DNA of 64,000 nt from Bilabrum cf. latius. Its lineage: Eukaryota. A model generated the notes under the pieces. That model was not told the DNA's origin, did no database searches, and saw only the letters and a list, made by a program, of their open reading frames with translations. The stretch is taken from assembly GCA_965178125.1 (NCBI GenBank), contig OZ237755.1:62001-126000 (forward strand), given 5' to 3'. Below are positions 1 through 63,912 of the stretch, in pieces. Every line of letters starts with the position of its first letter. Positions within the stretch are counted from its first letter, which is position 1. Position numbers and translations under genes: made by a program.

Positions 1-3000
1 CCCCGCTTGCTCGCCTTCCCTCCCATCCACCCGAATCCCTTAAGATCGTCACCGTCTACCGCCAGAGGCGCCTTTGCCCGAGAGGCGGCCAGCAGCGCCT
101 CAAGCTGATGGTCCCGCTCAGAGACACGAGGGCCATGACCAGAGCCTTGAACGGAGCCTCGCCGCCCGGCCTCCTCACCCCCTCCCAGGGAGCCACCGAT
201 CGAGCCGCTGGACCCCCCAGCAATTGCCTCCCGCTCATCCAGTTCCCCAGGATAGCCCGACGGAGCAACAAGCCCAGCAGCCCCTGCCCCTGCTCCTGCT
301 CCTGCCCCTGCTCCTGCTCCTGCCCCTGCTCCTGCCCCTGCTCCTGCCCCTGCTCCTGCCGCTGCTCCTGCCCCTGCCACTTCCCCACCCTTGGTCCCCA
401 TCCTGGGACCCCTGAGCTCGTCCAGCCTCCCCGCCTCGAGCAGCTCAAGGGCCCGCACAGCCCTCCCCGCCGCCCTCTCGCTCTCCTCCCTCTCCCGGGC
501 CAGCCAGCCGGCCGTGTCCACGCCCACGTGCCAGTTAGGATTGCGCCCGCTCGCAGTCAGCGCGCGAGTTAGGATGCCCCTGTTCCCTGGGCCACAGTCC
601 ACCATGCCCACGTGCCTGCAGCACTTATCCCACCCGGCGGTGAGCAAGTGCAGGTCCATGTGCTGGTGCTGCAGCCGAGCCATGCCGGTCACCGCGCCCG
701 CGTGCAGCACCGTGGTCCAGCCCACGTGCAGCAAAGCAGGCGCCTGCACATATATGTGAGGCGAGCCTGCTAGCAGCACGGGCTGTCGCTCTGGCGCGAA
801 TCCCCCCGCCGAAGCGATCTCCACCAGCGCTCGCTTCCTGTCCTGGCCCCCCAACCGGGCCAAAGAGTACACGGAGCTCTTGAGCTCGGCCGACGACATG
901 TCCAGAGAATGCCGGCGCCGGAGCCCCGGGGCTTGCAGTGGGTTTCCCGCCGCCGCCGCCTCTGCGACCCTGGCCTTGTGCACCTCGAATGCCTTGAGCA
1001 CATCCGTGAGGAGCCAGCGGGACACGCGGCCCTCATCCGAGGCCGTCACCAGGCTGAACGTGTCGGGGCAATAGAGCATGCACGTGGCGTACTCGTGCGT
1101 GTCCTCGTCAGCAGAAGTCGGTGCCACATCGTCCCCACCCTCATCGCCAGAGGGATGGTCAGGACCGGCGCTGTCAACCGCAAAGCCGCCTAAGCCCCTA
1201 CTGGATCCAGGCCGGCCTCCGGACCTGCCGCTGCGTCTGCTGTGTGACTCCCGGATGTCGTGCTTGGCCGCCTCCACCAGCTCGTCCTCTGCCTGCTGCA
1301 GCCCTGGATCGGCCCACTCGTCGGCTTCCCCTCCATACCCCTATCCCTGTCCGCCCGTCCCACTGCCACTGTCTGCAGCCATCGTCCCATCGAAGCGCAT
1401 CTTGCTCACACTCGTGCGCCGAGTCAGGTGCTGCGACAATGCGTCCGATTCCAGGACACCCATCCCCACCCAACCAGCAGAACCACCCCGGCTGCCCCCC
1501 TTCCTGTCCTCCATGGCCTGCAGCTGGGCGAGCAGGCCACCCACACCTCCTCCTGCTCCTGGGCCCCCATTCTCTCCACCCGCGGCCGCTGCGAACGCCT
1601 CTTTTCGCTGCAGGCTGTGTTTCTCCTGCTGCTTTTTCTTAAAGTCCGAGTAGTCCGCCTTGAATGCATCGGGATACTTTCTCATGAGCTCCAGCCGCTC
1701 CTCGTCCGCCCTGTCCTGCTCCCGCTTGAGTCGACGGCCCTGGATCACAGACATGAAGTCTGCCAGCTTCTTGGCAGCTTTCACCGCGGCCCCCGTGGGG
1801 TCCAACCATGACAGCGGTGCCAGCCGGAATGCAGCCAGCAGAGGCATGGTCCCTGATGACGGGCGCGCGCTCCAGAACGTGATGGTACCCGTTGTGTCCG
1901 CCACGGCGATCACTTGCTCCCTTGTGATTTCAGTGATGCAAGTCACCGCGCCCGCCACCCGGACCCTCGATTCCAGGTGCCCCGTCGTTCGCTGGTAGGC
2001 GTTGACGGCCCCAGACACGTCCCCCACCACGACCAGGTCCTGCACCTGCGACTCGCCCCGCACACCAATCACACAACTCACCTCGTCTTGCGGCCGAGAG
2101 TGCCCAGTGGCAAGCACAGTGTGGTTGTCCGGGTGCGTCCCCTTGCCATCCCGCACCGAGTGCAAGAAGACCACCCCACGGCGCCCCCTATCTCTCCATT
2201 GGGGGACGACGGGGCCTCTGGCGCCATCGGAGCCCTCTACGGTACTAACACGGCGACCGCTGTCGGTTGAAGTGCCACTGGAACCACCTCGCTTGCCTAT
2301 TTTTCGGCTCTGCAGCACCTCTGTGGACACACTAACCACTTGTCTGCGGATCCAAGCGACCCCATTTACGGGCCGCCCGTGAGACCGCAGGCTCCGAATG
2401 GTGTGCCCCGACGCGGCGTTGTGCGTCTGCACCGCTCCGCACTCGCACCCCACGGCGAATGTTACCCCCCTGGGATCCATGACCAGGCACTGGATGTTAG
2501 ACGGCGCGATATCCTTATAGACATTCAGCAACACGCCCACGATTGCGCTCCAGGCCATCACGCTGCGCCCACTAACTGTGAGCACGAGGGCGTGCTCGCC
2601 GGAGAAAGCGACCCCGGTGAGTGGGGTCTTGTTGGTGCGCACCAACAGCTCCGGCTCTCTCTGCTGCGAGTACATGTGCAGCGCTTTCAGGCCCAGCGCC
2701 AGCTACAGCTGCGGACCGTCGATCCCTGCGGCACTTTTGGCCGCTGCCTTGGCAGCCGTGGCCTCCTGCTCTGCCAGTCGGCGCTGAGCCACTCCACCCG
2801 CAGCGCTCTAATCTAGTGTACCCCCAACCAATGTCCCCACACCTCCACCCCTATGCCTGTGCTACTTGCGCTAGGGCCGCACGCACAGATCAAAGGACCG
2901 GAGGTAGCTCCCGGCGGATTTTGGGTCCCCTGGCCGCACGGATTCCTGGGTCTGTGTGCCGACCGTCTCGGCCACGTGAAACTGCTGCATGGGCCGCACA

Positions 3001-4802
3001 GGGGAACGGAGGTCCCACAGAGACACCACCCCGTCCAGCGATGCAGTGAGGATGTCGCCTGTCTCTTGGCAGCAGCGGACCCCCACCAACGGGGTCTTGT
3101 GCCCCTGGAGCGTCAGCACGCTGGACGAGACCTATGGGCTCCAGACCCTCGCCGAGTGGTCGTACGACGCACTCAGCAACAGAGACCTCTCCGCGAATAG
3201 ATCCAGCCCCACCACGCCCTGGTCGTGCCCCCGCATCACCGTCTCGCACTCCCCCGAGGTGACGTCCCATATTCTCAGCGTGCGGTCGTGCGAGGCGGAG
3301 GCTACACGGTCCTGCGTGGGGACGTCGCAGATGGCCGTGCACGCGTCTGAATGTCCCTTCATGGTGGTCAGCTGCTGCCCTGTGCTCACGTTCCACGTGT
3401 AGATCACTCCCTGGTTCGCACCACCGCTGTACAGCAGGCCGTACCGCCGCAGAAAGCTCAGGGTCAGCTGGGCCTGCGGCGTGGGCCATGACTGCACAAC
3501 CTGGTATTGCTTGGGGCCCGGGCTCAGGTCCCAGAGGGCGATGGTCGAGTTGCTGGCGGCTGTAAGAAGGAACGTTTTGTCTCGGGCGCTGGCGCTGCTG
3601 GCCATGAAAGGCTCCACAGCCTCCACCTGCGCCCCCTGTCCCTGCAGCAGAGCGAAGGGCCGCAGCCCAAGCCTGGGAGCTCTGTTCTCGTCCGAGTCGT
3701 CCAGCGCAAACGCGCCCAGCTTGCCACTGTTCGACCCGCCGCCACCGTGCTGCTGCGACTGTTCCCCGTGAATTCCAGTGGCCAGCGTCTCCCCATCCGA
3801 GGCTATCCCCGCGGCGGGAGGCCCTTCGTTCCCTCCCTCCAGCCCCATCAGAGTGATGCCCCGCTTGCGGCCCTCCACCACGGCCAACGAGTCCAAAGAG
3901 GGTATGTACCGCACGATCGTCACACCCTCGGCGGTCGTGGAGGAGGAGGAGCCCCCCTCTCCGCCCCCCGCACCCCCGTCCCCCGCTCCGCCCAGGATCC
4001 CCGCACCCACGACTCCTGCCCTACCATTCGCATCCGCAATGGGAGGCACCGGCACTGCGCTGCGGCCGACCTCACGGGCTGCCTGGGCCGCGCCCACGGG
4101 ATCTAGGGAGGTCTGTACGCGACGAGCATCGCTACGAAGCCTATCCAAGTCTCCTACTGTTCGTTCGGTTACGATCGACGTGAGCTTGTCAGCATCTACA
4201 CGCTCCCCTGCCAGCAAAGTGTGCCGCTTGAGCACCTGCTTCAGGCGCGAGCCGGCCTGTTTCTTGGACAGAACTACTGAAGACTCGCCTTGCACCGCCA
4301 ATGCAGCATCGGTTGTGCTTGCACCTGATGACACATAGACTGCAGCCCGATCGAACGTCGCAACCTGGCCAGAGCGAGCCTCCCGCTCTGCGATCAAAGC
4401 GGACTATTGCAGTACGAAGGCGCTCATCTCGCGCCAATCCACAGACCCGTCGCCGTCCGTATCTAATCTATCAAATATTCGGTAAACTGCCGCCTGAATA
4501 ACTTGCTGGCCAAGCTCTACCTCCACTGCGAGCTCATCAGTGCTGGTCGCTCCTAGTTTCGGGGCCGGCTCCCCTTCCAACGGAAACGCGCCTTCCCTCC
4601 TCAGCCGAAACTTTTTCGGTAGCAATCGCAGCATAATGGCAGCAAATTCGTCCCTCGAAAGTCGTGTGTGTGGTCGCATTTCGAACTCCTCTCGTAGTTT
4701 TATCTAGGACCCAGGGTCGTTCAGATTCATCAAAATCACGTCTACGGCACGCATGGAGCGGCGCTACACCTATCCAAACAAGCTGGTTCTTGGACTTTCC
4801 AT
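1..4802 (-). CDS. EF-hand + WD40-repeat protein (WDR49/WDR64-like); 3' end runs off the window
   Basis: One continuous frame from ATG 4802 to the window edge if 10 TAGs are read as sense (4770, 4764, 4704, 4404, 3132, 2871, 2862, 2808, 2703, 1341). EF-hand 'FDRLDTDGDGSVDWREM' is followed by WD40 repeats 'KGHSDAC..ASASHDRTLRIWD', 'RGHDQGV..SASYDHSARVW' and 'QGHKTPL..TASLDGVVSLWD'. ORFs 4404..4679, 3132..4397, 2871..3119 and 1341..2675 share one frame. Confidence 0.85.
284..378 (-). repeat. Hexamer microsatellite (ctgctc/ctgccc)n encoding a (Gly-Ala)n tract in the WD40 gene
   Basis: Direct reading of cctgcccctgctcctgctcc...; translates as GAGAGA in the gene frame. Confidence 0.8.
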
Positions 4803-4921: not shown

Positions 4922-6931
4922 ATGATACTAGCTGCGCTAGCGTTGCTCGCACACGTAATTGTAGGGCGCACATATGTAGATATATCACCCTCGGCGTGCA
5001 TTTCATCTGGGTCTTGGAAACTCGCAAGCAGCGGGCCGATTGTCTCAGGTAGCAGAATTCGATTTTTACCGTGGGCAGACAGCTTGCGAGAAGACCACGT
5101 GTGGGCTGATGTGTTGACAGCAGCATCACATGCATTTGCATTTGTTGAACTTCGCGCCGTATCTGGGCATGGAGCTACATTGCCGGTGCAAGCGTACAGC
5201 CGAGGCGGCAGCCGATTGCAAGCAGCGGGCGGCCGCAATTCCATTCGACTGTCTCCGTTCCAATCTGCCGAGCTTGTGATAGGTCAACAGTCTGGTTTAA
5301 CGTCAAAGGTTAGCTTGCATTGCAGATTGAACGCCTCGGACCCTAGCAACTGGATCCATCCCGTGTGTGGATGCCTCCTGGTTCTCGTTGCAGGCCCGCT
5401 TGCGGCCGCCGCCCTGGGTTGGCTGTAGGTGCAGCGCAGACGCTAGGGGTGTGGTTTCATATTCAGTATCGGTGCCGTGCTTGCACTCGCTCATGTTGCC
5501 GCTATCGTGACTCCTGTGGCCTCCCTCCGCCGAGTAGTTGACTTGAGGGCTTGTCCTGCCGACCTGCGAGCCACTGGGCCAGGGCCAGGGCCAGGTGCAG
5601 GCAGTCAAGGGCGCTCCCATGGCATTACACACGGAGTCGAAGACTTGTCAGCGCCTCGGTACGTTGCCTCGCGCTCGAATCGTCTGCCCAGTGCGCCTCG
5701 GGCGAGCAGCAGCCGCGCTGCAATTCCCACGTGGACACAGCGGACAGGGAGCCCCAGGGCGGGTGTAGGCGAGGGGGTTGTTGCCTAGGAGTAGACCAGT
5801 GGATGGCAAGATCATGACGCTGGAATTGATAGTGGGCATGCCTCAAGCCTGGCTCCTGGGGCTGTGCACGGCGTGCGCGGGCTGGCGGGCGTGGCGGCGG
5901 CTCTGCTGGACGGGGATACCCTGGGTCGGCTGGGCAGGGAGGCAACAGCAGGGGCTGCGGATGGCCTGACAAGTGAAATACGGGTTCCTCGATGGCTTGT
6001 GAGGTCGAGCGTGGATGCAGCCAGGCAGCAGCAGCGGGCAGGAGGCTCGGCTGCAGGCCAGCAGGGGGGGTGGGATCCGCTGCCGTCCGTTCTCCCCGTG
6101 GCCATCGAGGACTCGGATGCGTGCTGGGGGGAGGAGGGGATGGAGAGGGGCACTGGAGGAGGGGTGCGGGTGCTGCTGCGAGTAAGCTGGGCAGCTGTGG
6201 CGCTGTGGGCGTACATTGCGGGGTGTGGGGTGCTGCTGGCTGGGCTGGCGGTGGCGTGTCCAGGACAGGGCCAGGGCCGGGACCAGAGCCAAGGCGAGGG
6301 TGCAGCGAGAGATAATGTCAGGTGGGAGGGGAGTGGGACGGGCCCGGGGCCGGGGTCAGGATCGGGGAAATGGAGAACAACCGTTGGGGCCCAGGGCGGC
6401 TCGAGGCCGGGTCCAGGCACATTGAGGGAACAAGGAACGCTGTCGTGCAATGCACCCAGCGGCACTCGCGGGCCCGGCCCCTGGATCGCGCAGGGTGCTC
6501 TGCAGGCCCTGGGACTGCTGGTGCTGGCCTCGAGCTGCGCGCACGCGGGGGTAAGCGCGGGGCTAGTGGTGGGAGCGGGGTGGCTCGCGTGGGGGCGGCG
6601 GTGCAGTTGGCGGGGTTGCTGCGAGTGTGCCGATTCGGGGGCTGCCAGAGCAGATCATTGCTGTCGTGGCGGGTGCTTGGGCTGCGCCGGTGGCTGCTGT
6701 ACATGGATCTGCTGTGCATGCAGCGCAATTGGAGCAGCGTGCTCGCTGGGGGGTAAGAGGGAGTACGATGGCGGTATAAGTACGCGTGCAGGTCATGACG
6801 CAAGTAGGTCCACCGGCAGCACAGCGCCCGCAGCTGCCCGACGGCGATCAGATGTTCGTCTGGCGCGTGCGAGCTCGATTGGGCCAGATTTATCGATGCG
6901 AAGGCGGGTGGCTGCAGTGCCGGACAATTGA
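4922..6931 (+). CDS. Predicted signal-peptide, multi-pass membrane protein of unknown function
   Basis: ORFs 4898..5428, 5477..5788 and 5864..6931 share one frame, joined by TAGs at 5426, 5444, 5786 and 5792, and end in TGA. Hydrophobic N-terminus MILAALALLAHVIVG, several hydrophobic segments and a Cys-rich tail. Confidence 0.6.
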
Positions 6932-7265: not shown

Positions 7266-10200
7266 TCACTGCAAGAGCCCGAGGAGAGCCATGGGGTCAG
7301 CGCCTGAGGGTGCACCCCCAGAGCTGGCCGCAGCGGCGGGCCGTCTCCCCCGCCCCCGGCCCCGGCCCCTCCCCCTCGAGACTGGTGGCAGCATCGACAT
7401 GGGCGGCAGGTCGCCGGACTAGCTGGCAGGCTTGCGGACAGGAGACGCAGTCGGTACACCCGCGAAGATGTCGGCCAGCGGGTCCTCGGCTGCCTGTGCC
7501 GCTGGTCTACTGCTCTTGCTGCCAGGCGTGTACCCCAGCCCGGGGGGATACACCTTGGACTTGGACTTGGACGCCGGCGCTGGGCTCGCTGGTGGCAGCG
7601 CAACGGCGCCGTCACCGGGCTGAGACCCGCCCGCGCTGCCTAGCATGCGCAGGACCTCATCCGCCACCGTGTCTCGTGTCACCGGCTCGTCCACCTCTGC
7701 CCCATGCTGGCCCTGGCCCTTGCCACCCTGCCCGGTCCCCGCGCCCCTCGCACGGCGCTGCCTGCGAGCAGCCCTGGCAGGGTCCATGCCCACCGGCACA
7801 CGGCCCTCCTTGGACAGCGTGGACACCAGCGGGGCGGGCTCCGAGGGACCCGCTTGTTCCCTGGAGCTGCCCCTGCCCTTACCGCTGGCTCGCGAAGAAG
7901 ACCTGCTGCCCTGCCCCTGCCCCTCCCCGTTCACGTCATCCTTGGCCCAGTCCTCCACGGGCGCGTCCCCGTCCATGTCCAACTCCTCCCCCTCCTCCTC
8001 GCGCCTCGCTGCGCGGGCCTCCGCGCGCCGCTGCTCCTCGGCCTCCACGGTCTCCTGGACCAGCTCCCTTGCCCGCTCCACCTGCGCTGCCCGCCCCTTG
8101 AGCACCACAACCCCCCTCTCCCTGTCGATGTCCACACGAGCGCCCGACTCGTCCTGGATCTCCCGCACCCTCGCTCCCTTGGAGCCCACGATGGCAGGGA
8201 TGCTGCTCCCGTGCACAGGCACCTCCTCCACGGCCCGGTCCTTCCGCGCATCGACCGCCCCCTGCAGCACCTCGGAGAGCGCCTCTACCGCCTCGTCCAG
8301 CGCCTCCTGCGAGTCGGCCTGGACCGAGATCTCCCTCGGAGCCATGTCCTGCGCGTCGGCGGCCTCGCCCTCCTGCCGCTCCGGCCGCGGGCCCACGTTG
8401 ATGCGGGCGTGGGTGGCAGCCTCCACCTCACGCAGCGCCGCCGCCTGCCCCCTCATGAGTGCACCCACCGCGAAATCAGGGCACACCACCCGGCACCGCA
8501 TGGCCTGCAGCTCCCGGACGGCCTCCCTCACCGCCTCTGCACCCCGCTGCAGCGTCTCCTCGTCCCCAGCCCGAACCACCACGGATGCCATAGACACCGC
8601 CGGTGCCTCAACGCCGATGCACACCACGCGAGCCCCGGCCGCCGCCCCATCCGCGCCCGCCCTGCGGACCGATGCAGATCTCCGAATGTCGATCCTGCAC
8701 CCGGTCCTCTTCTGCAGGGCCTGCACAGTCTTGCCCTGCTTGCCCACGAATCCGCCCAGCAGCGAGTCTTCCAGCAGCACAGTAGCAGTGCGCCTCGCAT
8801 CCGCCGCAGCAGCCTTGAGCACAAGCTCCTTGCCCTCTTCTGCCGAAGCGGCGTCGAGCGCACACACCACCACGTGGTTGGCGGACGCGTTGGTCCACAC
8901 CGATGAGCCCGGCAGCGCGTCCTGCACCCGCTGCAGCGGGGTCCGGGAGTCGGTGGGCGTGGCCCCGCCCGCCTCCTCACCCTCCTCCTTGCCGCCCTCT
9001 GTGCCCTCGGCCTGCGCCTGCGCCTGCGCCTGGGGTGCCTCCTCGAGGGCGGCGGCCGCGCCCTCCTCCAGCTCCACCAGCTGCACCGCCGCCCCGATTG
9101 TGTGCGCGAGGATGACCTCAACGGAGTGCACCGCCTTGGCCAGCGCCCCGCTGTCGGCCGAGGTCAGCACCAGAGGAGTGCGCACAGGCATGCCCTCATC
9201 CCCAGCTCCATCATCTGCCTCCACCTCCACCTCCGCCTCTCCCGCGGCGGGAGCATCATCCGGTGAGGCCCCCGCCCCCGAGGCGGGCTCTGCCTCCTTG
9301 CCCTTGCCAGCATCTCCCGCGGGTTTCTCCAGCCTCCAGACCTGCCTGGGCTGCAGCGTGAGCCCGAACGGGTCCGCCGCCACCTAGGCCGCCGACCTGC
9401 CCCCTCCTCCTCCTCGCGAGGACCCCTCCTGCCCCTGACCAGCCCCTCCCGCGGACCCTCCTCTCGCCGCAAGAGGCCCCGCCTGCGGCATGCTGCCGCC
9501 AGCCGCCCGGATCTGCTCGCCGAGCAGCACCCCCTTGACTCCCGAGCCCCGGATCACTCGCACCAGAGAGGCGCGGGCGGGGCCTGCCAGGCGGCGCGCG
9601 TGCGGCCGCAGCAGGGGCAGCACGGCCACGCTCCCCCGCGCCATGCCCTGCACGGCGGCCTGCGTGGCCACGGCCTCAGCGGGCGAGCCTCTTACGGACA
9701 CGGTCGTGTTGCCGCCCACCACTGCCCCCCGCCTGCGGTCGATGTCGATGCGTGCCCCCAGCTGCTGCTGCAGGGCGCGGATCGTGGCCCCCCTGCGGCC
9801 AACCAGCTCGTTCAGCTTGGCCTCAGGGAAGCTCACCTCCAGATCGAGCTGCACTGCCCCCCGCAGCAGCTCCCGCACCTCCGCGGCGCACGCCTCACAC
9901 GCCTCTGGCTGGCCCCTAACGGCCAGCATGCCCCTCTCCCGGTCGATGCCCAGCCTGCACTCGTGCTTCTCCTCCAACCCTCGCAGGGTGCCGCCCCCGC
10001 GCCCCACCACGGCCCGGATGCAGTCGTCCAGCGCGCGATCGTCGGCCTTCATGACGTCCCGGCGCGCCCTCCCCGGCTCCAGAGGATCCAACGGGGCCCC
10101 GCTCTTCTTGCCCCTGCCGCGCCCGCGGCCCCTGCCCCGGCCGCGGCGCCTGCCGCCGCCACTCCCCCCACCCGTGGCCTGCAGCGCCGCCTCCAGCTCG

Positions 10201-26500: not shown

Positions 26501-26545
26501 CTCGGCCTGAGCCGTGGGCGCTGGATGCACTCGAGCTGACGACAT
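20471..26545 (-). CDS. Class III adenylyl cyclase fused to an N-terminal voltage-sensor/ion-channel-like domain (Paramecium/Plasmodium ACalpha type)
   Basis: Single frame from ATG 26545 to TGA 20471 with TAGs at 26492, 26402, 23525, 22703 and 22388. S4-like RAGRAARAGTRAGRIVRIIRLVRLIRIVK; cyclase motifs FGFCDIRRFTD, NKNIGDAFL, MGFGLHIGWAIEGAIGS, KIDASYLSPHVNLASRLE; TPR-like C-terminus. Confidence 0.9.
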
Positions 26546-34649: not shown

Positions 34650-34693
<44 letters not shown>

Positions 34694-44740: not shown

Positions 44741-45455
44741 ATGGCTGCAGCTCCATCGAGTAGTGGTTCAGATTATGATGAGAAGAAAATAATTGAGGGT
44801 GAGGCGTGCATGTGTCAGAAACTTTTCCGCATGGGAGTGTTATTGGCCAATGTTCCACACCCGCTTCCAGAAGCATGAATTTCACTCCTGTCCCATGCTT
44901 GCAGACTATTCTGATGCCAGCGAGTTCTCGCCACCGCTTTAGATGAGAGGTACGGTTGTGCATGGCTTTGGTAGGGGAAGCAAGAAGCTTGGAATTCCAA
45001 CGGCGAACTTGCGCCCGTCAGAGCTAGGGGCGGTAATGGAGAAAGTTGATAAGGCAGGGGTATACTACGGCTGGGCCGGGCTGAGTGGAAAAGGCCCATA
45101 CCGAATGGTAATGAGTATAGGATGGAACCCGCACTTCAAGAACAAGGAGCGAACTGTTGAGCCTCATCTGCTGCACGACTTCGGCGACGAGGATTTTTAC
45201 GGTGAAAAGCTTTCGCTGCTTGTGACAGGGTACCTGAGACCCGAGAAGAGTTATGACTCTCTAGAATCTTTGATTGCGGCCATCCACAGCGACATCGAGA
45301 AAACCAAGGTTGAGCTCTCGGCTGGGGAGGCTGCCGCTGCTGGCAAGAACGAGTGGTTGCTGGAGGTGTGCAATGCGGGCAAGGCAGAAGATAGCAAAAC
45401 AAGCGGGGATGGGACGGATGGCACGGCGGAGAGCTCGAGTGGCGCAGTTAGCTGA
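44741..45455 (+). CDS. RFK: Riboflavin kinase; intron 44799-44904
   Basis: 'GTVVHGFGRGSKKLGIPTANL', 'GVYYGWA', 'MVMSIGWNPHF', 'EPHLLH..DFYG' and 'GYLRPE'. TAG at 44940 just before the first motif; ends in TGA. Confidence 0.93.
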
Positions 45456-48900: not shown

Positions 48901-49370
48901 CGGTGGAGGCAGGGGTCAGGGCGGCTCTGTCCTTGTCCGAGGCTGACCTGATGGGAGCCTGCAGGGATGAACTGGGAGCGGTGGGACAGGAGGTACCCGG
49001 GCGGGGCGTGTTCGTGGAGAGCAGAGAGCAGGTGTGCGAGCGCAGGGTGGCCAAAGTCACCGCGGAGGAGGTCGGGCTGGTGTACGATGCGGCGGTGCAG
49101 CTGATGGAGACTCGCGATACGGTGGTCAAGAGGGCCGTGAGGGCCAAGGCAGAGGAGATCGCGCAGGAGAGGGCAGAGGCGGGGGCTGGGAGTTCGGGCG
49201 GGGCGAGCAGCGGGGCGGGGGCGGTGGAGGTGCGTATGCCCCCGACCGAGTTCATGGACGCTGCCTTCACGGCGGTCATGCGGAGGCTGGCGCAGTCAAG
49301 GGGCAGCTCCTGGGCGTTCAAGACAGGGGTGTTCCGGGATCTGGACGGGGATAGCTCAGAGGAGGACTGA
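45901..49370 (+). CDS. POLR3E: RNA polymerase III subunit RPC5 (C37/Sin-like); introns 45966-46063 and 46297-46386
   Basis: 'DPVEREFDVYLN(Q)ELADQL|SCIQFPLR', 'KS(Q)KFVS', 'G|EVHLTPV', 'AVCVAGVWVQRS' and 'RDYILWRF'. TAGs at 45946, 46233, 47310, 47490, 47925 and 48510; TGA at 49368. Confidence 0.82.
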
Positions 49371-52500: not shown

Positions 52501-55446
52501 CACACGGCCACAGTGGCATCTCAGCCTCGGCGCCGGAGCGTGATGGAGACAGACGCGGTGGGCCACACGGCCACAGTGGCATCTCAGCCTCGGCGCCGGA
52601 GCGTGATGGAGACAGACGCGGTGGGCCACACGGCCACAGTGGCATCTCAGCCTCGGCGCCGGAGCGTGATGGAGATGGACCTGCAGGCCACGTCCGTGAC
52701 ATCGCCAAAGAGACGACGAATCACCCATGCTTGGACCAGCACTTGCACCAGCGTGGCAGTGGTGCCTCCTGGACCCATGACTCTGCAAATCACAAAGGTG
52801 TTGAGGAGACCATTGGTGGGTACACCCACTGGGAACCCTGCCATAGACTCTATCGCTTTGTCCGAGTCAAGCGGAGACTCGGAGCGAGACGACTTTGACG
52901 ATGGGGGACCGTTTGCATCGCATGCCTGGCGTTAGCACCAGCCCTAGCGGTCTCCAGATAGCGCGGACGATGGAGGCAGCCATGGTCGGCGCACACCGGA
53001 TAGTCTGCTTGGCATGCCCATGTCTCGAACTTGGGCTAATCCGCTACATGCAGAGGTGCTTGGCGATGCGTGTGCATCCGTGAGGGGTCGCGAGGGGAAT
53101 GACGAGGACGTGTCTCGACTGCGGGCCATGCTTGCTTCCGCAGTCGCCCAACACGAGACGCTCCGAAGAGGCATGTAGTCGCGCTTCAAGTCACTGTAGG
53201 AGCAGTTGCACTAGTCTACATAGCGCGCATCTGCTTTGTAGCACGAGAATGACCGGTTGCGAGCCGAGATGTCCTCTATGTCAATTAGGCACGGACATCA
53301 GCTGCAAGCACTAGTTCCTCCACCGCCGCCTACCTTGTCGCAAGATGGGTGGGTCGGTACTGCGTGCATACCCTCAGCGGTTTTAAAGCCGCGCAGAGCC
53401 ACCTGGTCAGTCCAGGTGCCTCCCGCGTGCATGTGCTCGAGGCAAGCTTCTTCTTCGGTGAGCAAGCGAGAGAGGGCCACGCCACCCCGCGGGCGTGTGG
53501 GGTAGCGCGACCGCCAGGGACCGGGGTCTAGCTACCTGCAAGTGCTGGACACAGCTGGTGCTTCGATCAGAAGCACGAAAAGATCACAACCATTGAAGAC
53601 AAGCGGGGACGTGACTAGAAGTAGGAGCAGAAGCCAAGATAGAGATGCCAGCAGGCACAGGGATTGGTCTGCTCATGTGAGCAACTGGACTGGCACACTT
53701 GTTCGCCGAATGGCAACTGTATCTCGTGCGCCGCAGATGGTGTGGACTGCAGATCACGAGAATATTGTGATCGCGGCCATCGAGGCAGAGCAGGCGGGGC
53801 CTCACCGCAGGCCTCGCCTATCCCTCGTACCTGCTGCCACGGCGACATCGGTACTCAGCAGTACTGCTCATGCTTGGCCGGCCGCTGCCAGACAAGCAGT
53901 GAGCCTCGCGCGAACGGCTTGCATCGGGATGCGCCGGGAGCTGGCAGACCTGAAACGATCTTGTCAATAGCTCGGGGTTGGCCCAGTGCGAGCCACTGTT
54001 GCTGCTGCCGCGTATAAGCACAACGAACGCATTCTCCGGCAAGGCATGGCGGCGGGCATCAAGGCAGAGATTTCGAAGCGAGACGAGCACGTAAGGGTTG
54101 CTACAGAAGCGCTTTAGACCAGGTATGAGAGAAAGATCCAGCAGCTTCAGGATGCAGTGCACCGCATGCTGCCAGTGGTTCAAAGTACTGTTGCAGGCAA
54201 AACCGCCGTGGGAGGCGGCAGATCGCCTTCGGCCGGTGCACTGCCAACTCAGGTTGCGTCGCCCCAGGGGCATGGACCACAGCAAGAGCCTAAGCGCTTA
54301 CCCTTTGTTTCGTCCGGACATCTCGCAACCACCGCCACCAGCCATGGATAGGTTGGCGACAGGTCACGCAGCAGCAGCAGCAGGACGGACGGGTCACGGG
54401 GTCTGGCTGATGGGCCACAAGGCAGGATATATGAATCACAGGACATGGGGCGACCAAAACTGGATTTGGCCGGTCAGCGGAATAGCATACGGCAAATGGA
54501 CACATCCTATCATGCGAGTACCACGCCGAGCGCCAGTGGTCCAACTAGGCAAGAAGAAGGCAAGGATGAGCTCGCAGAGAACCGATAGGGCGACGTTGTG
54601 CAGTCAACAGGGTTCCAAGGGCAGAGGCACGGGCCATCTAGAGAGACAGGCAGGCCACACGTGGTCCATAGGTCTAGTCAGGAGGCGCATCGCGATGCAG
54701 GGCTCCACGATCACGATGTCTGGACACCGCCCAAGTCCACTCAAGCGATCGCCCCCGGGGGTAATACCGGCACTCACCATGGCACCTACCTGCATAGTGA
54801 CCCCACCCCTGATCCGGCACGCCCTGTCTCGCACCTGTCACCCACGATAGGTCGCACCACAGCAGCACATGCCAGTGGTATGGACAGGGGCAGCAGCCGG
54901 GGTTTTCGCTTGCTGTCTCCGCGCTTGGTTGCTGGGGGCGCCCGCGGGTCGAGGCAGGGCAGCGCGGCTATCCGTCGGGTGGACGAGGCTCTCGCAGCTG
55001 CACGGGCCCGGATTGCCCAGCAGAGGGGCAGGCCAGAGCACGAGCATGGGCATGGGCATGGGCATGGGCAGGAGGGAGCTCTTGCTGGTGGAGAGGGCCG
55101 GGAGGGGGAAGGTTTGTAGTGGTAGTCACAGCGGGGGATAGTGGCTAGCAGAGATGTAGACGGCTCGTTTGAGGTGGACCTGACTCGGGTGGATGGCAGT
55201 AACAGAGATGGCGCGCTTGGGTCCAGTGCGAGGTAGGGTCGAGATAGTGGTGCGGGTCGGGAGCCACTTGGAAGCTCGCTCAAGTTACGACTCGGGGACT
55301 CATTGCACACTTTGGGAGCCAGTAGATCCATGTCCAGCGAGGCTGGCACTGGCGCCGCGCTGCGACCAAGCCAGCTCCGAGGCGGTCGAGCCAGTGATCG
55401 AGGAGGCGAGCAACCGATCATAAAATTGCGGGTTAGACTGCGTTGA
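49543..55446 (+). CDS. Large (~1970 aa) low-complexity and coiled-coil protein with a 21-aa tandem repeat; unknown function
   Basis: ORFs 49576, 49882, 53257, 53542, 54157 and 54598 all share one frame, joined by about 18 TAGs, and end in TGA at 55444. Coiled coils near 53110-53280 and 54000-54170. Confidence 0.7.
51439..52675 (+). repeat. 63-bp coding minisatellite, about 19.6 nearly identical copies (TVASQPRRRSVMETDAVGHTA)
   Basis: Unit acagtggcatctcagcctcggcgccggagcgtgatggagacagacgcggtgggccacacggcc recurs every 63 nt from 51439 to 52636. Confidence 0.97.
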
Positions 55447-55635: not shown

Positions 55636-58600
55636 ATGAAAAGAGGGAGTAAATCCACGAGAAGGCGTCAGTAGGCTGGTCGCAAATTAGAACGACTGCT
55701 GTTGCAAGGGCCTGGGGCTGCAGCAGCTAGCGATGCCGGCCTCGGACGGGTGTCAAGCGCAGCCAGACAGCGAGCGGTGGACAGTATTGTATAGGACACA
55801 TTGGGAAAAGATTTTTCATAGAGTGTGCCAGTCTTACCCGCAGCTTCGCATGATCACGCTGGCAGCGACCATTCTATGGCGCGCACAACAGCGGCGGCAT
55901 CCCGGCAGCCGGCCCAACAGCGAGCCTGGGAAAACGATCCCCAGCTCGGACAGACTACTACCAGACATCCCATTGCTGGAAAGCCGCTGTTGCCTCCAGG
56001 GGGCGGCGGTGGCCAGCAGTCTGACATTGAAAGGCTCATCGCAAGCGAGGGGAAGTCCAGCTGGCACGGTTCACCAGTGAGTACGCCATCGCAAGACGAA
56101 ACTCCAAGGCACAGACAGTTTGGATCGGAAAGTTCGTTGGCGACGCCGCACGCTCGAAGGGGGGGATACAACCCACAGTCATTTGCAAAGCAACCGCGGG
56201 TGGCGAGTGCGGCTGAGTCTCGCTCGGTGCCAATGGGTGACGGCAGCCAATGGCAGGCATCTGCCAGCAATCCGCAGCACCGCGCGACTACAGGGATTGG
56301 AGCCAGTCGATCTCAAGTGTAGCCTGCCTCTTCATCCGCACGAGACCCGCGCGACGTGTTGGATGCCGGCCGCCCCGCCCCCGAGGCCGAGCAGATGCGC
56401 CGGGCCCGTCAGGCCCGCGACAGCCGCCAGCGAAGGTCTTATTTCTCCGCAGGGTCAGCGGGAGGCTCGATAGCCCCGGGCACGGTGGATCTCACAGAGA
56501 GCGACAGCGACAGGGACAGAGAGGGCCTGGGGCGGTATGAGGACCATCTGGCGAGGACAGGGGCCCGGCGCACCTTCGAGCAAAAGAGGATAGAGAGGGA
56601 GAGGGAGAGGGAGAGTGCGGGGCCCATGGCCGTGCACTCGAGAGAATCGCACGGAAGCGGGTATCTGGGCGGACCGAGCGGACTCTTCTCGCACCCACTG
56701 CCCAGCGAAGGCAGCTTCGCATCGCAGACTAGCGCGAGCAGCGCCCGCGGCACGGCCCTACCGGCCAGCAGCGGCGCCTCGACCTCGTACGGCAGCGCCT
56801 TCGTGAACGAGGACAGGGATCTCTTTGCCCCTGCATCGGACTTCATGGCAGCGACGTTCGACCCCCGCACAGCCCTGGCACAGGCCAACAAAGCTGCCCG
56901 CAGGCAGCACCGCGCGGCCGCGTCGCTTCGGGACCGCGTGCAGAAACTCACCAAGGCGCTTCACGACGCGCGGGCAGAGAGAGACGTGCAGAGGGAGGAA
57001 GCAGAGGATGCGAGACTGCAGCTCGGGGCCGCCCGGGCACAGCTGGAGGCCACGGAGACCAAGCTGGAGGAATCCAACGAGCAGCGGCAGCAGCTGCAGC
57101 TGGAGAACGGCGAGCTAGCACAGTCGGGCCAGGGCCATGGCCAGGGGCATGGCCTGGCAGAGAGCAAGGGCAGGGACAGTCCTTCCAGCCCCAGTCGGCT
57201 GCAGAGGGCGGGCTCCCGCTCGCTGCTGCTCCTGTCGCATGGCCCATCACTGGGCAGCAGCAGCAGCAGCCTCCTCCAGCGATCCGCCGCCCCCCGCAGC
57301 ACCGTGGGCCGCAAGCCCCGTGCCCTTGAGCAGGGCTCGGCTCTGCTGATGGCGCCTTCCTCCCCGGGCGGGCCCAGCCCCATGGTGTCCACCAGAGAGG
57401 TCGAGGATCGCCTCCGCAAGCAGCTCATCGAAGCCAGGAAGGCGGCCTCGCAGGCGGCCAAGGCGGCCTCCAAGGCCAAGGTGGATGCCGCCAGGGACAG
57501 GATCGCGGCGCAGGAGGCGGTTCGCCAGCGCCGTATTGCCAATGACGAGCTGGCCGTGACTCGGCGCGAGCTGAAGCGGGTGCAGATAGCAGCGAGGGCC
57601 AACACCGACGGAGAGGACGCCGCCAGGCTGCAGGCCAAACGGCTCGCGGCCGCCGTACGGGCCATGGCGGGCTCCGTTGCGTCGTGGGCAGCAGAAGCTG
57701 CGGCACGGGCAGAGGCGCGCGTGTGGCGACTGGCGGCGGCTAGCGCGCTGCAGCTGGGGCCCGGGACCGGAAGGGGGCGGGAGGGGCCAAGCGCGGGCCT
57801 GGAAGCGGGCCACCTGGCCGCTGCCGCCGTGTCCGGCACAATGAAAGGCGCGTTAGCACTGCCAGCGGCAGGTGCAGGCGCCGGTGAGGTGCCCTCCTCA
57901 CACCCCCTGCAGGTGGTGTCCCAGTCGGGTGAGGGTCTGGCGGCAGATGCGGCCCCTCGTCCTCCCACTCCGCAACCGCTGAGTAGCGCAGATGCGGCAG
58001 CGCTGGAGGCAGGCTCCCAGGACCGCAGCGGCCCCGCCCAGCGCGCCTTGAGCGACGCTCTAGAGGCACAGGGAGGCATCGCGGCCCAGGCTATGCAGGC
58101 CGCGGGCGAGTCGCCCTCTGCCGGGATCACGCTGCTGGAGGCTGAGCTGAGAGCGCTGCAGGCAGGGCAAGCGGGTCCGGGCGGGGCCGGCGTGCCGTTG
58201 GCCGACAAGGCGGCGCGTCTGGCGGCAGCCGCGGGAGAGACTGGGCAGTCCCTGTCCATGCAGCCGGATGACGGCAAGCATGCACCCGAAGAGCATGGGA
58301 ACGGTTCGCCGGGCAGGTCTCCATCTGGGGGTGGTGGTAGCAGGAGAGGGCGGGGGTCGCCAAGTCGGCATGGGCAGGGCGACGCCTGGGGCACCGGGCC
58401 TGAAGACGAGGCGCAGCGAGTTCTCTCCGAGTCCCGGGCGCAGCGCATGCTGGCGGATGCAGCGCACGAGCGTGCCAAGGCCGCAGCCACCATGTCGCAG
58501 CTTTCTTCGCTGCAGCAGTCCGCCTCGGCAGCGGCCGCATTCCGCGACGCGCTCGTGGTGCTCGCCTGGGACTCCCGGGGCTGGGAGGCAGGATACGAGG

Positions 58601-61600
58601 CCGAGAAGCGCGCAGCAGCGCAAGGGCGGCGGCGGATCAAGGAGCTGGAGGCGCTGCTGGCCGAGTCGCAGGAGCGGGAGCGCAGGCGCGCGGGCGGCAT
58701 GATGCAGGCGGAGGGGAAGGCCGACCTGCTGCAGGCCCAGCGAGAGGGACTCGCGAGGGGCCTGGCCACCACGCTGGCGGAGGCGCTGCAGAATGGGGGC
58801 AGCGGCGAGCAGAAGCGCAAGAAGAAGAAACTGAGGCGCGAGCGGAGGCGCGGGTCTGTTAGCAATTACGACTCGGCGTTCTGTCTGGCTGGCGGGGCGC
58901 TGGGCCGCGCGCACAATCTGCTAGTAGGTCTGTGGCACGCGTGCGTTGGCATGTGCCGCACGGCGGTAGGGACGTCCTCGGTGGCTCGCATGGAGACGCC
59001 CGGGGCGGGACAGCGGGCCGCTGATCTGGTGCTGGAGCGGGGGGCCGCAGTGGTCCCTGATCTTCGGAAAAGCGCACACGGTGGTGGGGGGCCGCTGGGA
59101 CGGGCTGAGATCCCGCCCGAGGAGCTGGGCGTGCTGGCAGGCGGGACAGAGAGGCAGGCCGGGCTATGGGCGGCGGACGTGGCCCTGCGATCGATGGTGT
59201 CTCTGTGGGAGGCGGCGGATGCGGCTGTCCGGGCGCGGGCCGGTCTGGGAGTGGGGGCGAGCGGTCGGCTCGGCGGTAAATCCGAGGACCTGGCGGCTCG
59301 GCTGGGGATGGCCATCGATGCAGCGACGGGGCGCGTCAGGCGTGCGCTACTGGCTGGATCCATTCCTCGGCTGCAGGGGAGAGGGGGCCGCGGGCAGGAC
59401 GAGCAAACAGGCGAAACTGTTTCCGAGGGGGCTGCCGGGGACTACAGCGACGCGGTCCCTGTACCACCGGTCGGTCCCATCGACCTCGGCGCGTGGCTCG
59501 GCTGGGCGGGCGATCTGGGGGCGGAAGATCTGGCTGAGCTGTCCGCGGGTATCACCAAGCAAGCAGAGATGGAGACTTCTCGACAAGTCGGTCGCCAGAG
59601 CTCTCATGGCGACCGCCCCGTGCAACAACCCGGCACAGTAGTTGATGCAGGTGATGCGGGCGGGAGTAGCTCAGCAGGTGATGATCTGCGGGACGAGGTG
59701 GGGCTGCGCGCCAGCCTGGACGACTCATCCTCGGTGGCCTCCTCCCTGCCCGACTCTCGATTGCTGAGAATAGGCATGCCGAGGAGCAATAGCCCCGTGG
59801 GGCGGGAGGCGGGGCCAGGGACGGGGCACAGAGATCGCCTGGTGTCCGATCTGTCCGACGGCGGCATGGCATCCGCGTCCTTCGCACCCCCGCACATGGC
59901 TGGTCGCACGGGTGAGGCACTGCACACCAGGATGCCGGCACCCTCCCCTGCCCTGGGCGGGAGGCGCGGATACTCCATCGATGGGTCGGACGAGGCCTCC
60001 TCTTTCCTTGACAACAGAGAGGGCCACCAGGCAGGCAGCTCGCCGATGAGCGTGCCTTCCGACCGCCTGCAGGAAAGGGGCGACGATGAAGCACAAGGCG
60101 CGTCCCGCACTCCGAATCGAGGAGCCAGCGCTGCGAACAGTGGGTCGGGAGGACGGCCGGGCACTGCAGCCAGCCACAAAGAGGGCAGGCGATCGAGCGG
60201 CAGGCTCCATCATCCGGGGTCTGTGTCCAGGCTGGGCCGCAGCAACTCGGCCCTTGCCCTCGCGGCTGGACTCACGGGCACCGGTGCAGCGGCGAGAGCG
60301 CCAGCGGCATCCTCCCCCCTGGCAGGCCCATCCAGAGTCGCGGGCGAGTCAAACATCACGTCGAGCAGTTTCCTTGAGCCGGGACTGGGCCTGGATGGGG
60401 AGGGGCAAGGGCATGGCAATCGGGCTGGTGTGGCTGCCCCGACATCCGCCAGTTCGGCCGACGGTGATGTGTTCCAACTGCCTACAGTAGATCCGCAGGC
60501 CAGTGGCAACGGCGATCGCGTTGCACCGCTGGAGGTGCTTCTGGAACGCGCCGCCAATCGACCCGAGGACGAGAAGGCGGATCTGTTGCTCATGGGCGAG
60601 CTGGACGGGGTGCCTGCGGCGCTGCAGTCGAGTGCCGGTGGGATTCCAGGGTCGCCCATGCGCGCTTCCGATGGGAGCATCCATGGGAACAGAGTGCCCT
60701 TCCGTGAAGGGGGCGTGGGCAGTGACCCCAAAACAAGAGGGGATGCCCTCCTTGGCTCCATTAAGAAGTTCGTTGATGGTGGTGGCACCACGGGGGCTCA
60801 GGTGCAGGCTGGCATTCGCAAGAAGGCAGAGGAGCAGGCCAGGAGGAAAGAGGCAGCGGAGGAGTAGCTGAGGCAGCAAGGCATCGGGGTGATGCAGCCA
60901 GCCAAGCAGCCAGACGTGCGGGGGGGGCAACGGCAACAGAAGCAAATGCAGAAGCTGCAGAACGAAGCTGCCACAGTGCAGCCGCGCACTCGCTAGCTGT
61001 CTGCACCGCCCGCGGGACTGTCTCAGGAGCACCAGCAAGATGCGGGGCTGGCCGTCGACAGCGAAGAAGCGCGGCCCAGGAGAGGGGGCGGGCGCAGAGG
61101 GAACAAAAAGGGCCGCAGGGGGCGCCGGGCCTCGAGGGCCTCGGAGCTCGCAGACCTAGCGCGGGAGGCAGCGGGTGAAGGGCCGCCTGGGGAGGAGGAG
61201 GGGGGCTCTGGTAGGTCCCATCGGCGCAGCACGGGGAGCGGCAGTGAGGAGGAGAGCGAGAGTCCGGCTGCAACGCGACGCAAAGCGGCGGCACAGCGGC
61301 GCGAGCAGCGGCGGCTGACGATGATGCAGGTGGCTGTGGCTGAGGGCCTCATGTCAGCGGCACAGACAAGCGGTTTCGAGCAGGTAATGCAGGAGCAGCT
61401 GCAGCAGGTCGGGCTGCTGGCAATCAAGCGAGGGACCAACGGCGGCAATCAAGGCGGCACGCTGGGCAGAGGCGGCGTGTTTGACGGCCACGAGGACGAA
61501 GAAGACGCAGTGGAGTACACGGTGCCTGCAGGCGCCGGTCCCTCCCATGCCAGCCAGCTGTTTGCCACTGTGAGCGCGATCTTACTGCGGCTGCGGCGGA

Positions 61601-63912
61601 TCCTTGCCACGGGCGCCGCGCTGCAGAGATCCCCCTCACTGGACGCTGCTTCCGTGCTGCTGACCACAGAGACCACCGAGATCCTGCAGTGCGAGCGTGC
61701 GTCTCTGTTCCTGTACGACAGGCAGAGAGACGAGCTGTGGGCCCGCGTGTACCAGGGCACGTCCGACATGGCCTCGCTGGTGTCTGCCTCCACCAGTGCT
61801 GGCAGCGAGCAGCCCATGATGGAGATCCGTATGCCGGCCAGCAAGGGTGTGGCAGGCTGGGTAGCCACGCACGCAGAGCCGCTGCTGGTCACCGACGCGT
61901 ACGCCGACTCGCGCTTCAACACCGCGGCGGATGGACGCACCGGCTTCCGCACCCGAGACATCGTTGCGGTACCGATCATGGAAGGTCATGTGGTTGACAA
62001 GAGGAGACATGGTGCGGCAGGACAGGCCAGCGATGGACCGGGCACTAGCCCGCGGGACGGTGCCGGGTAGGATAGTCCCCGCGACCAGGTGCTGGGGGTG
62101 CTCATGGCAGTCAACCGGCGGCGGCAGCTGCAGGCAGCCCTCGGTGCAGGGAGCAGCGCGGCCAAAAAGGGCGCACAGGCACTCGGGCACGAAGGCTTCA
62201 GCCCCCTCGACGTTGTGCTGCTGGGCATCCTGAGCACACAGGCAGCCGCCATCATCCAGAGGGCCAGGCGTGAGGCCCGCGACAAGGCCAGGAAGCAGGC
62301 GAGAGACGCAGTGCTGCACATGATCCCGAGGTTGGACCGCCCTCTGAGGCCGCTCGTGGAGGCGCTGGGGCTGCGGGCGCGACTGTAGCAGGCCGCGTGC
62401 ATGGGAGAGGCTACCGCGGAGACTGAAGGGGGCACTCTTGCGGACAGTGGGTCAGGGAACAAGATGCAGGCATGGCCAGGGCACAGGGTGGGTGTGTTGT
62501 CCCACAGACCGCCCCCGTTCGTGTCAGACGAGCACGAGGCCATGCAGTCGCTGCTGTCCAAGGCGCTGGAGGCGCCGCAGGCTGGGTAGGAAGGCAGCGG
62601 GTCCGGCAAAGAGCCAGAGCCCGGCGAGGAGAAAGTGGGCACCTCCCTTGCACTCGTCACACGATCAGGGGCAGTCATCACCCGCATGCCCCTCCGGCTC
62701 GCGCCCCGGATGATGGTCCCCGTCGCCTCCCGCGTGATGCCGCTGGACCCGTGGCTCCTTCCAGACGGTGTGGACCCCGCGCTAGCGTGGGCGGAGCAGA
62801 CGCAACAGGCTGCTGCGGCGCTTGTTGGCTCTGCGGGCGCCCGTCTGTTTGTGCTAGCCGAGAGCACGGGCCGGCATGGGGGCGACCTGGGCTAGTCTCT
62901 GCACGAGGCCAGGGGCTCTCAGCTGCACGCGGGCGGCGCAAAGGGAACGGGCGCACGGCGGCCCCTGGGGTCTCCTCTGCAACCGCAAGATAAGCCGTCG
63001 GGCGGGCGCGACGGGTGGACCTCTCCCTATGCCAAGGGGAAGGGACAGGGCTAGGGACAGGGCTAGGGACAGGGCGGGTCCGGGCCCCAGCAGCAGGAAG
63101 GTGGCGCAGGCTGGTCGCAAGGCAAGTCATCTGCCTTCACCGGTTAGTCACTCGGTGGCTTGGGCAGCGGGGCCACCGATGGTACCCAGGGTGGCAGCAC
63201 GTCGACCCACCCAACCGGACCATGGTCCCCTGGTGTGGGGATGTTCTGGTTCAGCAGTCTCGACAGAGACGCACAAGCCTCCTACACGAGGCAATCCGCC
63301 AGCGATGCCGCTGCCGCGCCCGATCCGGACTCGCTGCGTGCCGGGCGGGTGGTGAAGCTGATGAGTGCGATGGAGACGGGGGCAAGCGGTACGCCCACCA
63401 CGCCTGAGCAGCGGCGGCGGCGCGCCATGCAGGAGGCCATGGAGGCGCGATGGGTAGAGGCGAGGCCGCGCGGGGATCGCTGCTGGGCGCCTAGGCACTC
63501 CGTTGACTCGATCGCTGGGAGGGCAGCGTCCCGCACCGGAGAGGACCTGAGCCCGCCACCCATGACTCCCGAGCTGGCCAAGCTGGGCGACCCTGTTGGC
63601 CTGGTGGATATCCTGCACCCGCCCGAGGGCACGGTGTCGGACCGAGGGGGCAGAGGGCCTCAGCTTATCCAGCCGCGGCCCTCGGCCTCCCCATGGCACA
63701 ACCCACGAATCGACCTCGACTGCGTGACCCCGCTCGCGGTAGTGCCATGCATGGACAGCAGGGGCAGGTGCACGGCGGTGCTGGAAGTGCCGCTGCTGAC
63801 GCCCACCGAGGGTGCTCTGGAGGCCCTGGCTCTCTTTGCTCGTGTCATCGGTTCCTAGGCAGCTGCCGTGCAAGGACTCGACCTCTGTGCCAGGGCATTC
63901 AGGGGTGTGTAA
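55636..63912 (+). CDS. Giant (~2760 aa) coiled-coil protein with C-terminal GAF domain(s)
   Basis: One frame from ATG 55636 to TAA 63910 with 14 TAGs. GAF motifs 'CERASLFLYD..ELW', 'GVAGWVA..LLVTDAYADSRFN..D..TGFRTRDIVAVPI', 'VLGVLMAVNR' and 'FSPLDVVLL'; possible degenerate second GAF 'AVVPCMDSRGRCTAVLEV'. Confidence 0.75.

Follow-up and report, generated by a model that had tools for sequence, protein, structure and literature searches.

Evidence that UAG encodes glutamine in nuclear genes of a GC-rich protist

Almost every gene in a 64,000-nucleotide (nt) stretch of contig OZ237755.1 (positions 62,001 to 126,000, assembly GCA_965178125.1, Bilabrum cf. latius), here called the window, contains TAG in an otherwise open reading frame. 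The question is whether these codons are translated and, if so, as which amino acid. The window is 65% G+C and has about one eukaryotic nuclear gene every 3 kb, some 18 in all, whose identities are Pfam matches (Table 1). A first-pass annotation, made from the sequence alone, had proposed that UAG is read as glutamine throughout and that UAA and UGA remain stops. The present analysis leads to the same answer: UAG is a sense codon for Gln, the meaning of UAA and UGA has not changed, spliced mRNA still contains TAG, and a second species of lower GC content has the same code. We therefore regard it as highly probable that this is the code of the nuclear genes of an aerobic, flagellated, GC-rich protist that uses UGA as its main terminator and UAA as a minor one.

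The frequencies of the three stop codons identify TAG as a sense codon. The 15 largest open reading frames (ORFs) comprise 17,073 codons with 72 in-frame TAG and no TAA or TGA, and the other two frames of the same ORFs contain 182 TAG, 68 TAA, and 504 TGA over 34,146 positions. Given this off-frame incidence of TGA and TAA (572/34,146), a run of even 670 codons free of both has a chance of about 1e-5 by hand arithmetic, indicating that the long frames are real coding frames that contain TAG. When only TAA and TGA are taken as stops, frames extend up to 2,758 codons; the standard code fragments them. With exons refined by RNA joints, there are 79 TAG in 18,370 codons from 22 exon or ORF segments of 18 genes, a count that excludes one further TAG (17391) in a predicted exon of the thiolase gene. 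TAA and TGA are absent from the interior of all these segments, as the first-pass annotation had stated. TAG is present in 16 of the 18 genes, or in 17 if the predicted thiolase exon is counted, which leaves the mitochondrial elongation factor gene (EF-G) as the only TAG-free one. The earlier estimate of about 88 TAG in 18 of 19 genes was slightly high, though essentially right. TAG makes up about 9% of the Gln-type codons in the window. The base 3′ of TAG (G 33, C 20, A 13, and T 13) resembles the base that follows CAG, so no read-through context is evident.

The codons had also been described as lying inside several catalytic or structural domains. The named domains are indeed present (TTL, Guanylate_cyc, GAF_2, EMP24/GOLD, RING/IBR, and Zip), but only some of the TAGs are inside them. 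Residues 25, 32, and 98 of TTLL, 557 of the WD40 protein, 183 of the Na+/H+ exchanger (NHE), and 296 of RPC5 fall within matched Pfam stretches, as does the TAG of the GOLD gene. Those of the cyclase, GAF, and ZIP genes fall outside the best listed Pfam stretches.

The amino acid can be read from a relative that carries the WD40 gene of the window. A first metagenome scan with a 1,200-residue WD40 query matched 130 stretches, with no relative among them. Two pieces of metagenomic DNA, L001 (6,288 nt) and L002 (3,462 nt), both 55-56% GC, do come from such a relative. Their WD40 sequences (L001 2483-6286 and L002 2-3460) share 820 of 1,150 residues with the window (about 71%). The adjoining gene for the Cys-rich membrane protein, again divergent from the WD40 gene, is present in L001 as well; 193 of 531 aligned residues are identical, and the L001 copy ends in TGA. 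The relative has in-frame TAGs of its own, with 16 in the L001 WD40 sequence, 12 in that of L002, and 7 in the L001 membrane-protein gene, and TAA and TGA are absent from all three.

Alignment of the window to L001 and L002 gave 1,949 codon pairs, in 989 of which 8 or more of the 12 flanking residues are identical. At this cut, which we take as the main one, TAG is paired with a sense codon 16 times, and in 12 of these pairs the partner encodes Gln (5 CAA and 7 CAG). A substitution table derived from this alignment gives a log-likelihood (lnL) of -20.8 to Gln and of -51.4 to His, the next candidate, a gap of about 30. TAG pairs with Gln in 75% of cases, compared with 76% for the conservation of Gln itself in the same pairs. 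Other cuts give similar values, with Gln in 9 of 10 pairs at 10 or more identical flanking residues and in 13 of 17 at 6 or more. Despite the 71% protein identity, no TAG is paired with TAG among the 1,242 codon pairs at the latter cut. The swaps between TAG and CAA or CAG (CAR), together with the absence of any shared TAG position, indicate that TAG and CAR exchange like synonymous codons.

More distant homologs were examined for the same purpose. The first 1,200 residues of the WD40 protein were searched exhaustively against all representatives; 143 of the 150 listed matches are generic WD40 matches to residues ~400-620 and were not used. The orthologs consist of three full-length proteins with about 39% identity (P0003-5) and four short fragments with 70-99% identity (P0002, P0006, P0029, and P0094). 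At the TAG of residue 13 all three aligned sequences have Gln, and the same is true of all four at residue 133, including the 99%-identical fragment, and of all four at residue 700. The TAGs at residues 644, 647, 665, and 1154 are in low-complexity sequence without a clear partner. For TTLL, columns were read in the best 120 of 386 homologs. Gln occupies the column of residue 25 in 106 of them (88%) and that of residue 98, within the motif KP..(A/S)QG(K/R)GIF, in 118 (98%). Solved wild-type TTLL6 also has Gln at the latter position. When a 130-residue stretch of TTLL is scored against the Pfam TTL profile, reading TAG as Gln yields the highest value (59.0 bits), followed by Arg (57.9), Lys (57.4), Glu (55.5), Asn (55.3), Ser (53.0), an unspecified residue X (52.9), Tyr (50.7), Trp (49.7), and Leu (49.5).

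Not every position agrees with Gln, and several observations count against it. The remaining 4 of the 16 codon pairs are with His (two), Arg, and Phe. In the WD40 orthologs, residue 33 is Arg in three of three sequences, residue 11 is Asp, Ser, or Met, and residue 557 is Gln in two and Arg in two. The column of TTLL residue 32 is Asn in 110 of the 120 homologs. The margin of Gln over Arg in the Pfam comparison is only 1.1 bits, and we use these scores as supporting evidence only. At poorly conserved sites, TAG aligns to Ala and Ile in ARIH1, to Ala in NapA, to Phe, Arg, and Phe in riboflavin kinases (RFK), and to Ser, Pro, Pro, and Pro in TMED proteins. The PDB alignments put the TAGs of the RBR ligase, NHE, RFK, and TMED genes at unconserved positions, which makes them uninformative about the amino acid, and the Mre11 TAG is in a gappy linker that is equally uninformative. 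As judged from the alignments, the non-Gln columns (Asn, Arg, His, and Phe) are about as frequent as they would be for ordinary Gln codons. Across the WD40 gene, TTLL, and the codon pairs, TAG aligns mainly to Gln and not to Glu, Leu, Tyr, or Trp.

The change is confined to UAG, as had been claimed. The segments with a terminal stop end in TGA (14) or TAA (3) and never in TAG (n = 17). The genes closed by TAA are MMADHC, NHE, and apparently the GAF gene; between the MMADHC terminator and that of TTLL, which is transcribed convergently, there are only 64 bases (29063-29126). CAA accounts for 124 of the 766 CAR codons in the window, and at this share the chance of finding no TAA beside 79 in-frame TAG is about 1e-6 (hand arithmetic). 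The test is cleaner in the relative, whose third positions show no GC bias. The ratio of CAA to CAG is 22:27 in the L001 WD40 gene and 8:8 in the membrane-protein gene, while TAA:TAG is 0:16 and 0:7, respectively. Thus CAA is about as frequent as CAG, yet TAA:TAG is 0:23 overall, which indicates that only UAG is reassigned. The sample comprises only 17 terminal stops, and occasional termination at TAG may occur; the tandem TAG-TAG (39882-39887) located 47 codons before the TGA of the anoctamin gene is the best candidate site in the window.

The TAGs are present in both DNA and transcripts. Contigs of four public runs (X1, X5, X6, and X8) were aligned to positions 27600-47599. None of the runs is on record as RNA, and the RNA nature of X5 and X8 is deduced from spliced joints. 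X1 is unspliced DNA over this range; seven of its eight listed pieces have no differing letters, and the eighth is a 39-base repeat fragment with three. X5 and X8 contain GT..AG joints that are absent from X1 (28326>28423, 28511>28598, 31541>31638 on the minus strand, 43408>43649, 43724>43871, 44797>44904, 45965>46064, and 46295>46386), which identifies their contigs as spliced transcripts. Between them, the X5 and X8 contigs cover at least 12 TAG codons without a differing letter (five in TTLL, three in RBR, two in MMADHC, and one each in NHE and RFK). One spliced contig, X5 record 9 (29769-31541 joined to 31638-31979), spans all five TTLL TAGs, and the three RBR TAGs are spanned by spliced X5 record 13 and X8 record 27. 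X5 record 12 (40309-41100) includes the NHE TAG at 40854, X5 record 14 and X8 record 28 (both from 44904 onward) include that of RFK, and X8 record 23 (27945-28326) includes both MMADHC TAGs. No intron observed in these contigs removes a TAG. The codons are thus retained in spliced transcripts, being neither spliced out nor edited, and the letter-for-letter agreement of DNA and transcript contigs in the listed pieces argues against sequence errors at these sites; both had been named by the first-pass annotation as points to check.

Contigs identical to the window, with no differing letters in most listed pieces, are found in runs filed under four organism labels from four studies, with spliced RNA in two. 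The four labels may reflect a flagellate co-cultured with, or contaminating, other cultures, or one organism that goes under several names.

Several other readings of the TAGs must be weighed. UAG might mostly mean Gln and also terminate some genes by context, as in codes that lack a dedicated stop. This would suit the TAGs that come late in their genes, namely the anoctamin tandem, residue 1836 of the 1,886-residue KH protein, and residue 2741 of the 2,758-residue GAF protein, after which the tails are short and of low complexity. We nevertheless consider such an ambiguous code unlikely, because TAG is missing from the 17 terminal stops observed, the base after it reveals no special context, and reading goes through internal TAGs into conserved sequence. 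Alternatively, UAA and UAG (together UAR) could both encode Gln, as they do in Amoeboaphelidium, hexamitids, and many ciliates, with TAA rare simply through high GC. The predominance of TGA terminators is compatible with such a code, and the TAA of the GAF gene is followed by an in-frame TGA 16 codons downstream, near the end of the window. The lack of in-frame TAA at the prevailing share of CAA, repeated in the relative at 55% GC, and the TAA stops of MMADHC and NHE make this very unlikely.

Could TAG instead stand for another residue (Glu, Lys, Leu, Tyr, Trp, Ser, Arg, or His) or a mixture? Some columns do hold Asn, Arg, or His, and Arg and Lys come within 1-2 bits of Gln in the broad Pfam TTL profile. 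Every alternative is, however, at least 30 lnL units below Gln in the codon-pair model, and the two most conserved TTLL columns are overwhelmingly Gln; we judge this reading extremely improbable. It is barely conceivable that the TAGs are untranslated, whether as pseudogene lesions, assembly errors, small in-frame introns, or codons edited to CAG in the RNA. No observation favors this reading. Of the three stop codons, TAG alone is found in frame, independent runs have the same letters, spliced contigs keep TAG, none of the observed introns coincides with a TAG, and the relative has TAGs at different positions in the same intact genes. Translation of UAG as Gln, with UAA and UGA kept as stops, accounts best for these observations.

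By analogy with other codes in which glutamine has captured a stop codon, the decoder of UAG would be a derivative of tRNA-Gln(CUG) that carries the anticodon CUA, and eRF1 would have lost recognition of UAG while keeping that of UAA and UGA. A GC-rich genome has few TAG or TAA stops, which would have eased the capture of UAG. ARAGORN detects no tRNA genes in the window, L001, or L002, and eRF1 is not among the genes of the window.

Which organism uses this code? The bicosoecid stramenopile Cafeteria roenbergensis is the top named match for both of the genes that have named matches. For TTLL it is the best named match (278 bits) and is followed by Phytophthora, Thecamonas, and brown algae among the best 120 of 386; for Mre11 it is the best match overall (320 bits), ahead of seven oomycete and unnamed rows. 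Quick maximum-likelihood trees place Cafeteria as sister to the window with support from the Shimodaira-Hasegawa-like approximate likelihood ratio test (SH-aLRT) of 80 for TTLL and 98 for Mre11, although these are single-gene trees with sparse sampling. The TTLL tree includes 40 of the 120 matches, all of which were used for the columns. The Mre11 tree includes 20 of 28, leaving out eight further Phytophthora, Schistosoma, Pythium, and Cryptococcus rows. Confidence in the placement is lowered by the very long branches of the window (2.48 changes per site for TTLL and 2.87 for Mre11) and by unusual composition, which was flagged in both trees for Cafeteria and in the TTLL tree for the window as well. 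On balance, we favor a stramenopile, possibly allied to bicosoecids, a lead that comes from two genes only. Cafeteria itself is not the source, since identity to it in conserved domains is only 43-48%. For the WD40 gene, near relatives are known solely as metagenome or Logan fragments of 143-292 residues, as expected from standard-code gene calling in a clade that reads TAG.

The window does not resemble the lineages known to read UAG as Gln, as the first-pass annotation had suspected: it has genes of an aerobic mitochondrion and a GC content of 65%, and Cafeteria and oomycetes are its best named relatives. Mitochondrial EF-G, an HADHB-type thiolase, and MMADHC point to an aerobic, translating mitochondrion and argue against fornicates such as Iotanema, which should lack such genes. 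Ciliate genomes are mostly AT-rich, some with gene-sized chromosomes, and the argument against a ciliate is drawn from these features alone; the window is a GC-rich contig with many genes and GT..AG introns of 86-240 nt.

Reassignment of UAG alone to Gln is listed for Iotanema spirale, Protocruzia tuzeti, and two phyllopharyngean ciliate lineages in PMC11687900 and PMC5304391. As in the window, UAA and UGA stay stops in these organisms. They differ from it in host lineage, being a fornicate and ciliates, whereas the window and its relative are 65% and 55% GC and the best named relatives are stramenopiles. UAR is given as Gln in Amoeboaphelidium protococcarum, Hexamita, Streblomastix, ulvophyte green algae, and many ciliates (PMC11687900, PMC5304391, and PMC6299283). 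These codes likewise involve capture of a stop codon by glutamine, presumably through a Gln tRNA with a mutated anticodon and a narrowed eRF1, but TAA is no sense codon in the window, with none in frame and three as terminators. Amoeboaphelidium protococcarum was considered as a source and ruled out by its GC content of 40.5% (PMC10608142) and by its UAR code (PMC5304391 and PMC6299283). According to PMC11687900, UAG and UAA have separate meanings in a handful of ciliates, in Iotanema, in one rhizarian, and in Scotinosphaera.

The nuclear genome of Cafeteria roenbergensis is very GC-rich, at about 70% according to the available part of its genome paper (10.1101/751586). Like the window, Cafeteria is thus GC-rich; it is a heterotrophic flagellate and has the closest named TTLL and Mre11 sequences. 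A non-standard code is mentioned in that part of the paper only for the mitochondrion, and Cafeteria proteins in the database have their full length, as the standard code would predict. A full-text literature search returned no nuclear UAG = Gln code in stramenopiles; subscription papers and supplements were outside its reach, and a published description may exist. The bicosoecid and stramenopile matches that were examined concern mitochondrial codes or reference lists only. The window therefore apparently represents a known variant code in a new, independent lineage. Quite possibly, though we hold this tentatively, it is the first nuclear code change in stramenopiles and an independent UAG-only origin among heterotrophic flagellates, in a bicosoecid-related clade that is so far unsequenced or undescribed.

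At least two species of very different GC content (65% and 55%) share the code, and TAG and CAR have fully turned over between them, so that it looks old and fixed rather than like a recent leaky suppressor. Few changes of nuclear code are known, and fewer still separate the meaning of UAG from that of UAA. Another independent origin, in a flagellate that is GC-rich and apparently culturable, would provide one more case for understanding how UAG becomes uncoupled from UAA. The rarity of TAA and TAG at high GC fits codon-capture ideas, and the organism would offer a tractable system for eRF1 specificity and suppressor tRNA-Gln. Standard-code gene calls on it are truncated, and annotation and phylogenomic pipelines need the UAG = Gln table for this clade, which we take to be NCBI table 15 ('Blepharisma').

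Table 1. Genes of the window and their in-frame TAG codons
Gene or part	Position	Strand	Features
EF-hand + WD40	3..4802	-	Pfam WD40; 3′ end beyond window; 10 in-frame TAG
WD40 TAG codons (lowest coordinate of each)	4770, 4764, 4704, 4404, 3132, 2871, 2862, 2808, 2703, 1341	-	
Cys-rich membrane protein	4922..6931	+	no Pfam family; 4 in-frame TAG; stop TGA
Multi-KH (vigilin-like)	7266..12926	-	KH_1 E=2e-86; 5 in-frame TAG; stop TGA
Mitochondrial-type EF-G	13166..15859	+	GTP_EFTU, EFG_III, EFG_C; 0 TAG; stop TGA
HADHB-type thiolase	16023..17450	-	Thiolase_N/C; main exon 16023-17117
Thiolase predicted exon 1	start ~17450	-	TAG at 17391; GTGAG donor; prediction without RNA support
ZIP transporter	17617..18765	-	Zip 32.4 bits, under gathering cut-off 35.1; 2 in-frame TAG; stop TGA
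p24/GOLD (TMED) segment	19022..19630	+	EMP24_GP25L E=1.2e-36; TAG at 19157; stop TGA
Ion-transport + adenylate/guanylate cyclase	20471..26545	-	Ion_trans, Guanylate_cyc; 5 in-frame TAG; stop TGA
MMADHC	28062..29062	+	MMADHC Pfam; exons ..28326, 28423-28511, 28598-29062; TAG 28107, 28152; TAA stop at 29060
TTLL1/9-type tubulin polyglutamylase	29127..31832	-	TTL E=3.8e-64; stop TGA
TTLL exon 2	29127-31541	-	TAG at 31467, 31446, 31248
TTLL intron and exon 1	intron 31542-31637; exon 1 from 31638	-	exon 1 TAG at 31737, 31674
Mre11	32321..35659	+	Mre11_DNA_bind; one TAG, 34064, in variable linker; stop TGA
Anoctamin	36801..40031	+	Anoctamin E=1.1e-96; tandem TAG-TAG 39882-39887; stop TGA
Na+/H+ exchanger (NHE)	40308..42246	+	Na_H_Exchanger on both parts; TAA stop at 42244
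NHE exons	exon 1 40308-41100; predicted exon 2 from ~41315	+	TAG 40854 (exon 1), 41434 (predicted exon 2)
RBR (Ariadne-type) E3 ligase	42419..44589	+	RING/IBR Pfam; ARIH1 E=5.8e-23; stop TGA
RBR introns and TAG	introns 43409-43648, 43725-43870	+	TAG 42713, 42863, 43034
Riboflavin kinase (RFK)	44793..45455	+	Flavokinase E=5.2e-38; intron 44798-44903; TAG 44940; stop TGA
RPC5 (RNA polymerase III subunit)	46425..49370	+	RPC5 E=3.4e-14; 4 in-frame TAG; stop TGA
Large low-complexity gene	49543..55446	+	1,967 residues; 18 in-frame TAG; stop TGA
Giant GAF-domain gene	55636..63912	+	GAF_2 22.8 bits, under cut-off 28.6; 14 in-frame TAG; apparent TAA stop at 63910

Some features of the window are independent of the code. 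Rfam yields no matches in it at gathering thresholds, hence no rRNA. The mitochondrial-type EF-G has an N-terminal extension, and an ESM Atlas look-up of this protein returned generic eukaryotic EF-G clusters with no taxonomic signal. A homolog search with the anoctamin produced a single match at 24% identity and was uninformative. The cyclase gene encodes a product of 2,024 residues in which an N-terminal, voltage-sensor-like ion-transport domain is fused to an adenylate/guanylate cyclase domain, an architecture familiar from alveolate cyclases.

Five further ORFs were left uncounted. One of these (19807-20853, plus strand, 12 TAG) runs over tandem repeats, has no Pfam match, and is probably not a gene. 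The others, at 15964-17040 and 35666-36418 on the plus strand and 41248-42264 and 43618-44634 on the minus strand, are without Pfam support or antisense to real genes.

Two near-perfect tandem arrays, 19797-20019 (45 bp x 5) and 20166-20533 (61 bp x 6), separate the GOLD gene from the 3′ end of the cyclase gene. A third array, at 51439-52675, consists of 19.6 copies of a 63-bp unit with 99% identity and encodes a 21-residue repeat within the large low-complexity protein; its uniformity suggests very recent expansion or homogenization. Finally, the RNA contigs define two more GT..AG introns, 45966-46063 and 46296-46385, between the riboflavin kinase stop and the RPC5 ATG, which may reflect a long 3′ untranslated region, 5′ exons of RPC5, or a small gene absent from the annotation.

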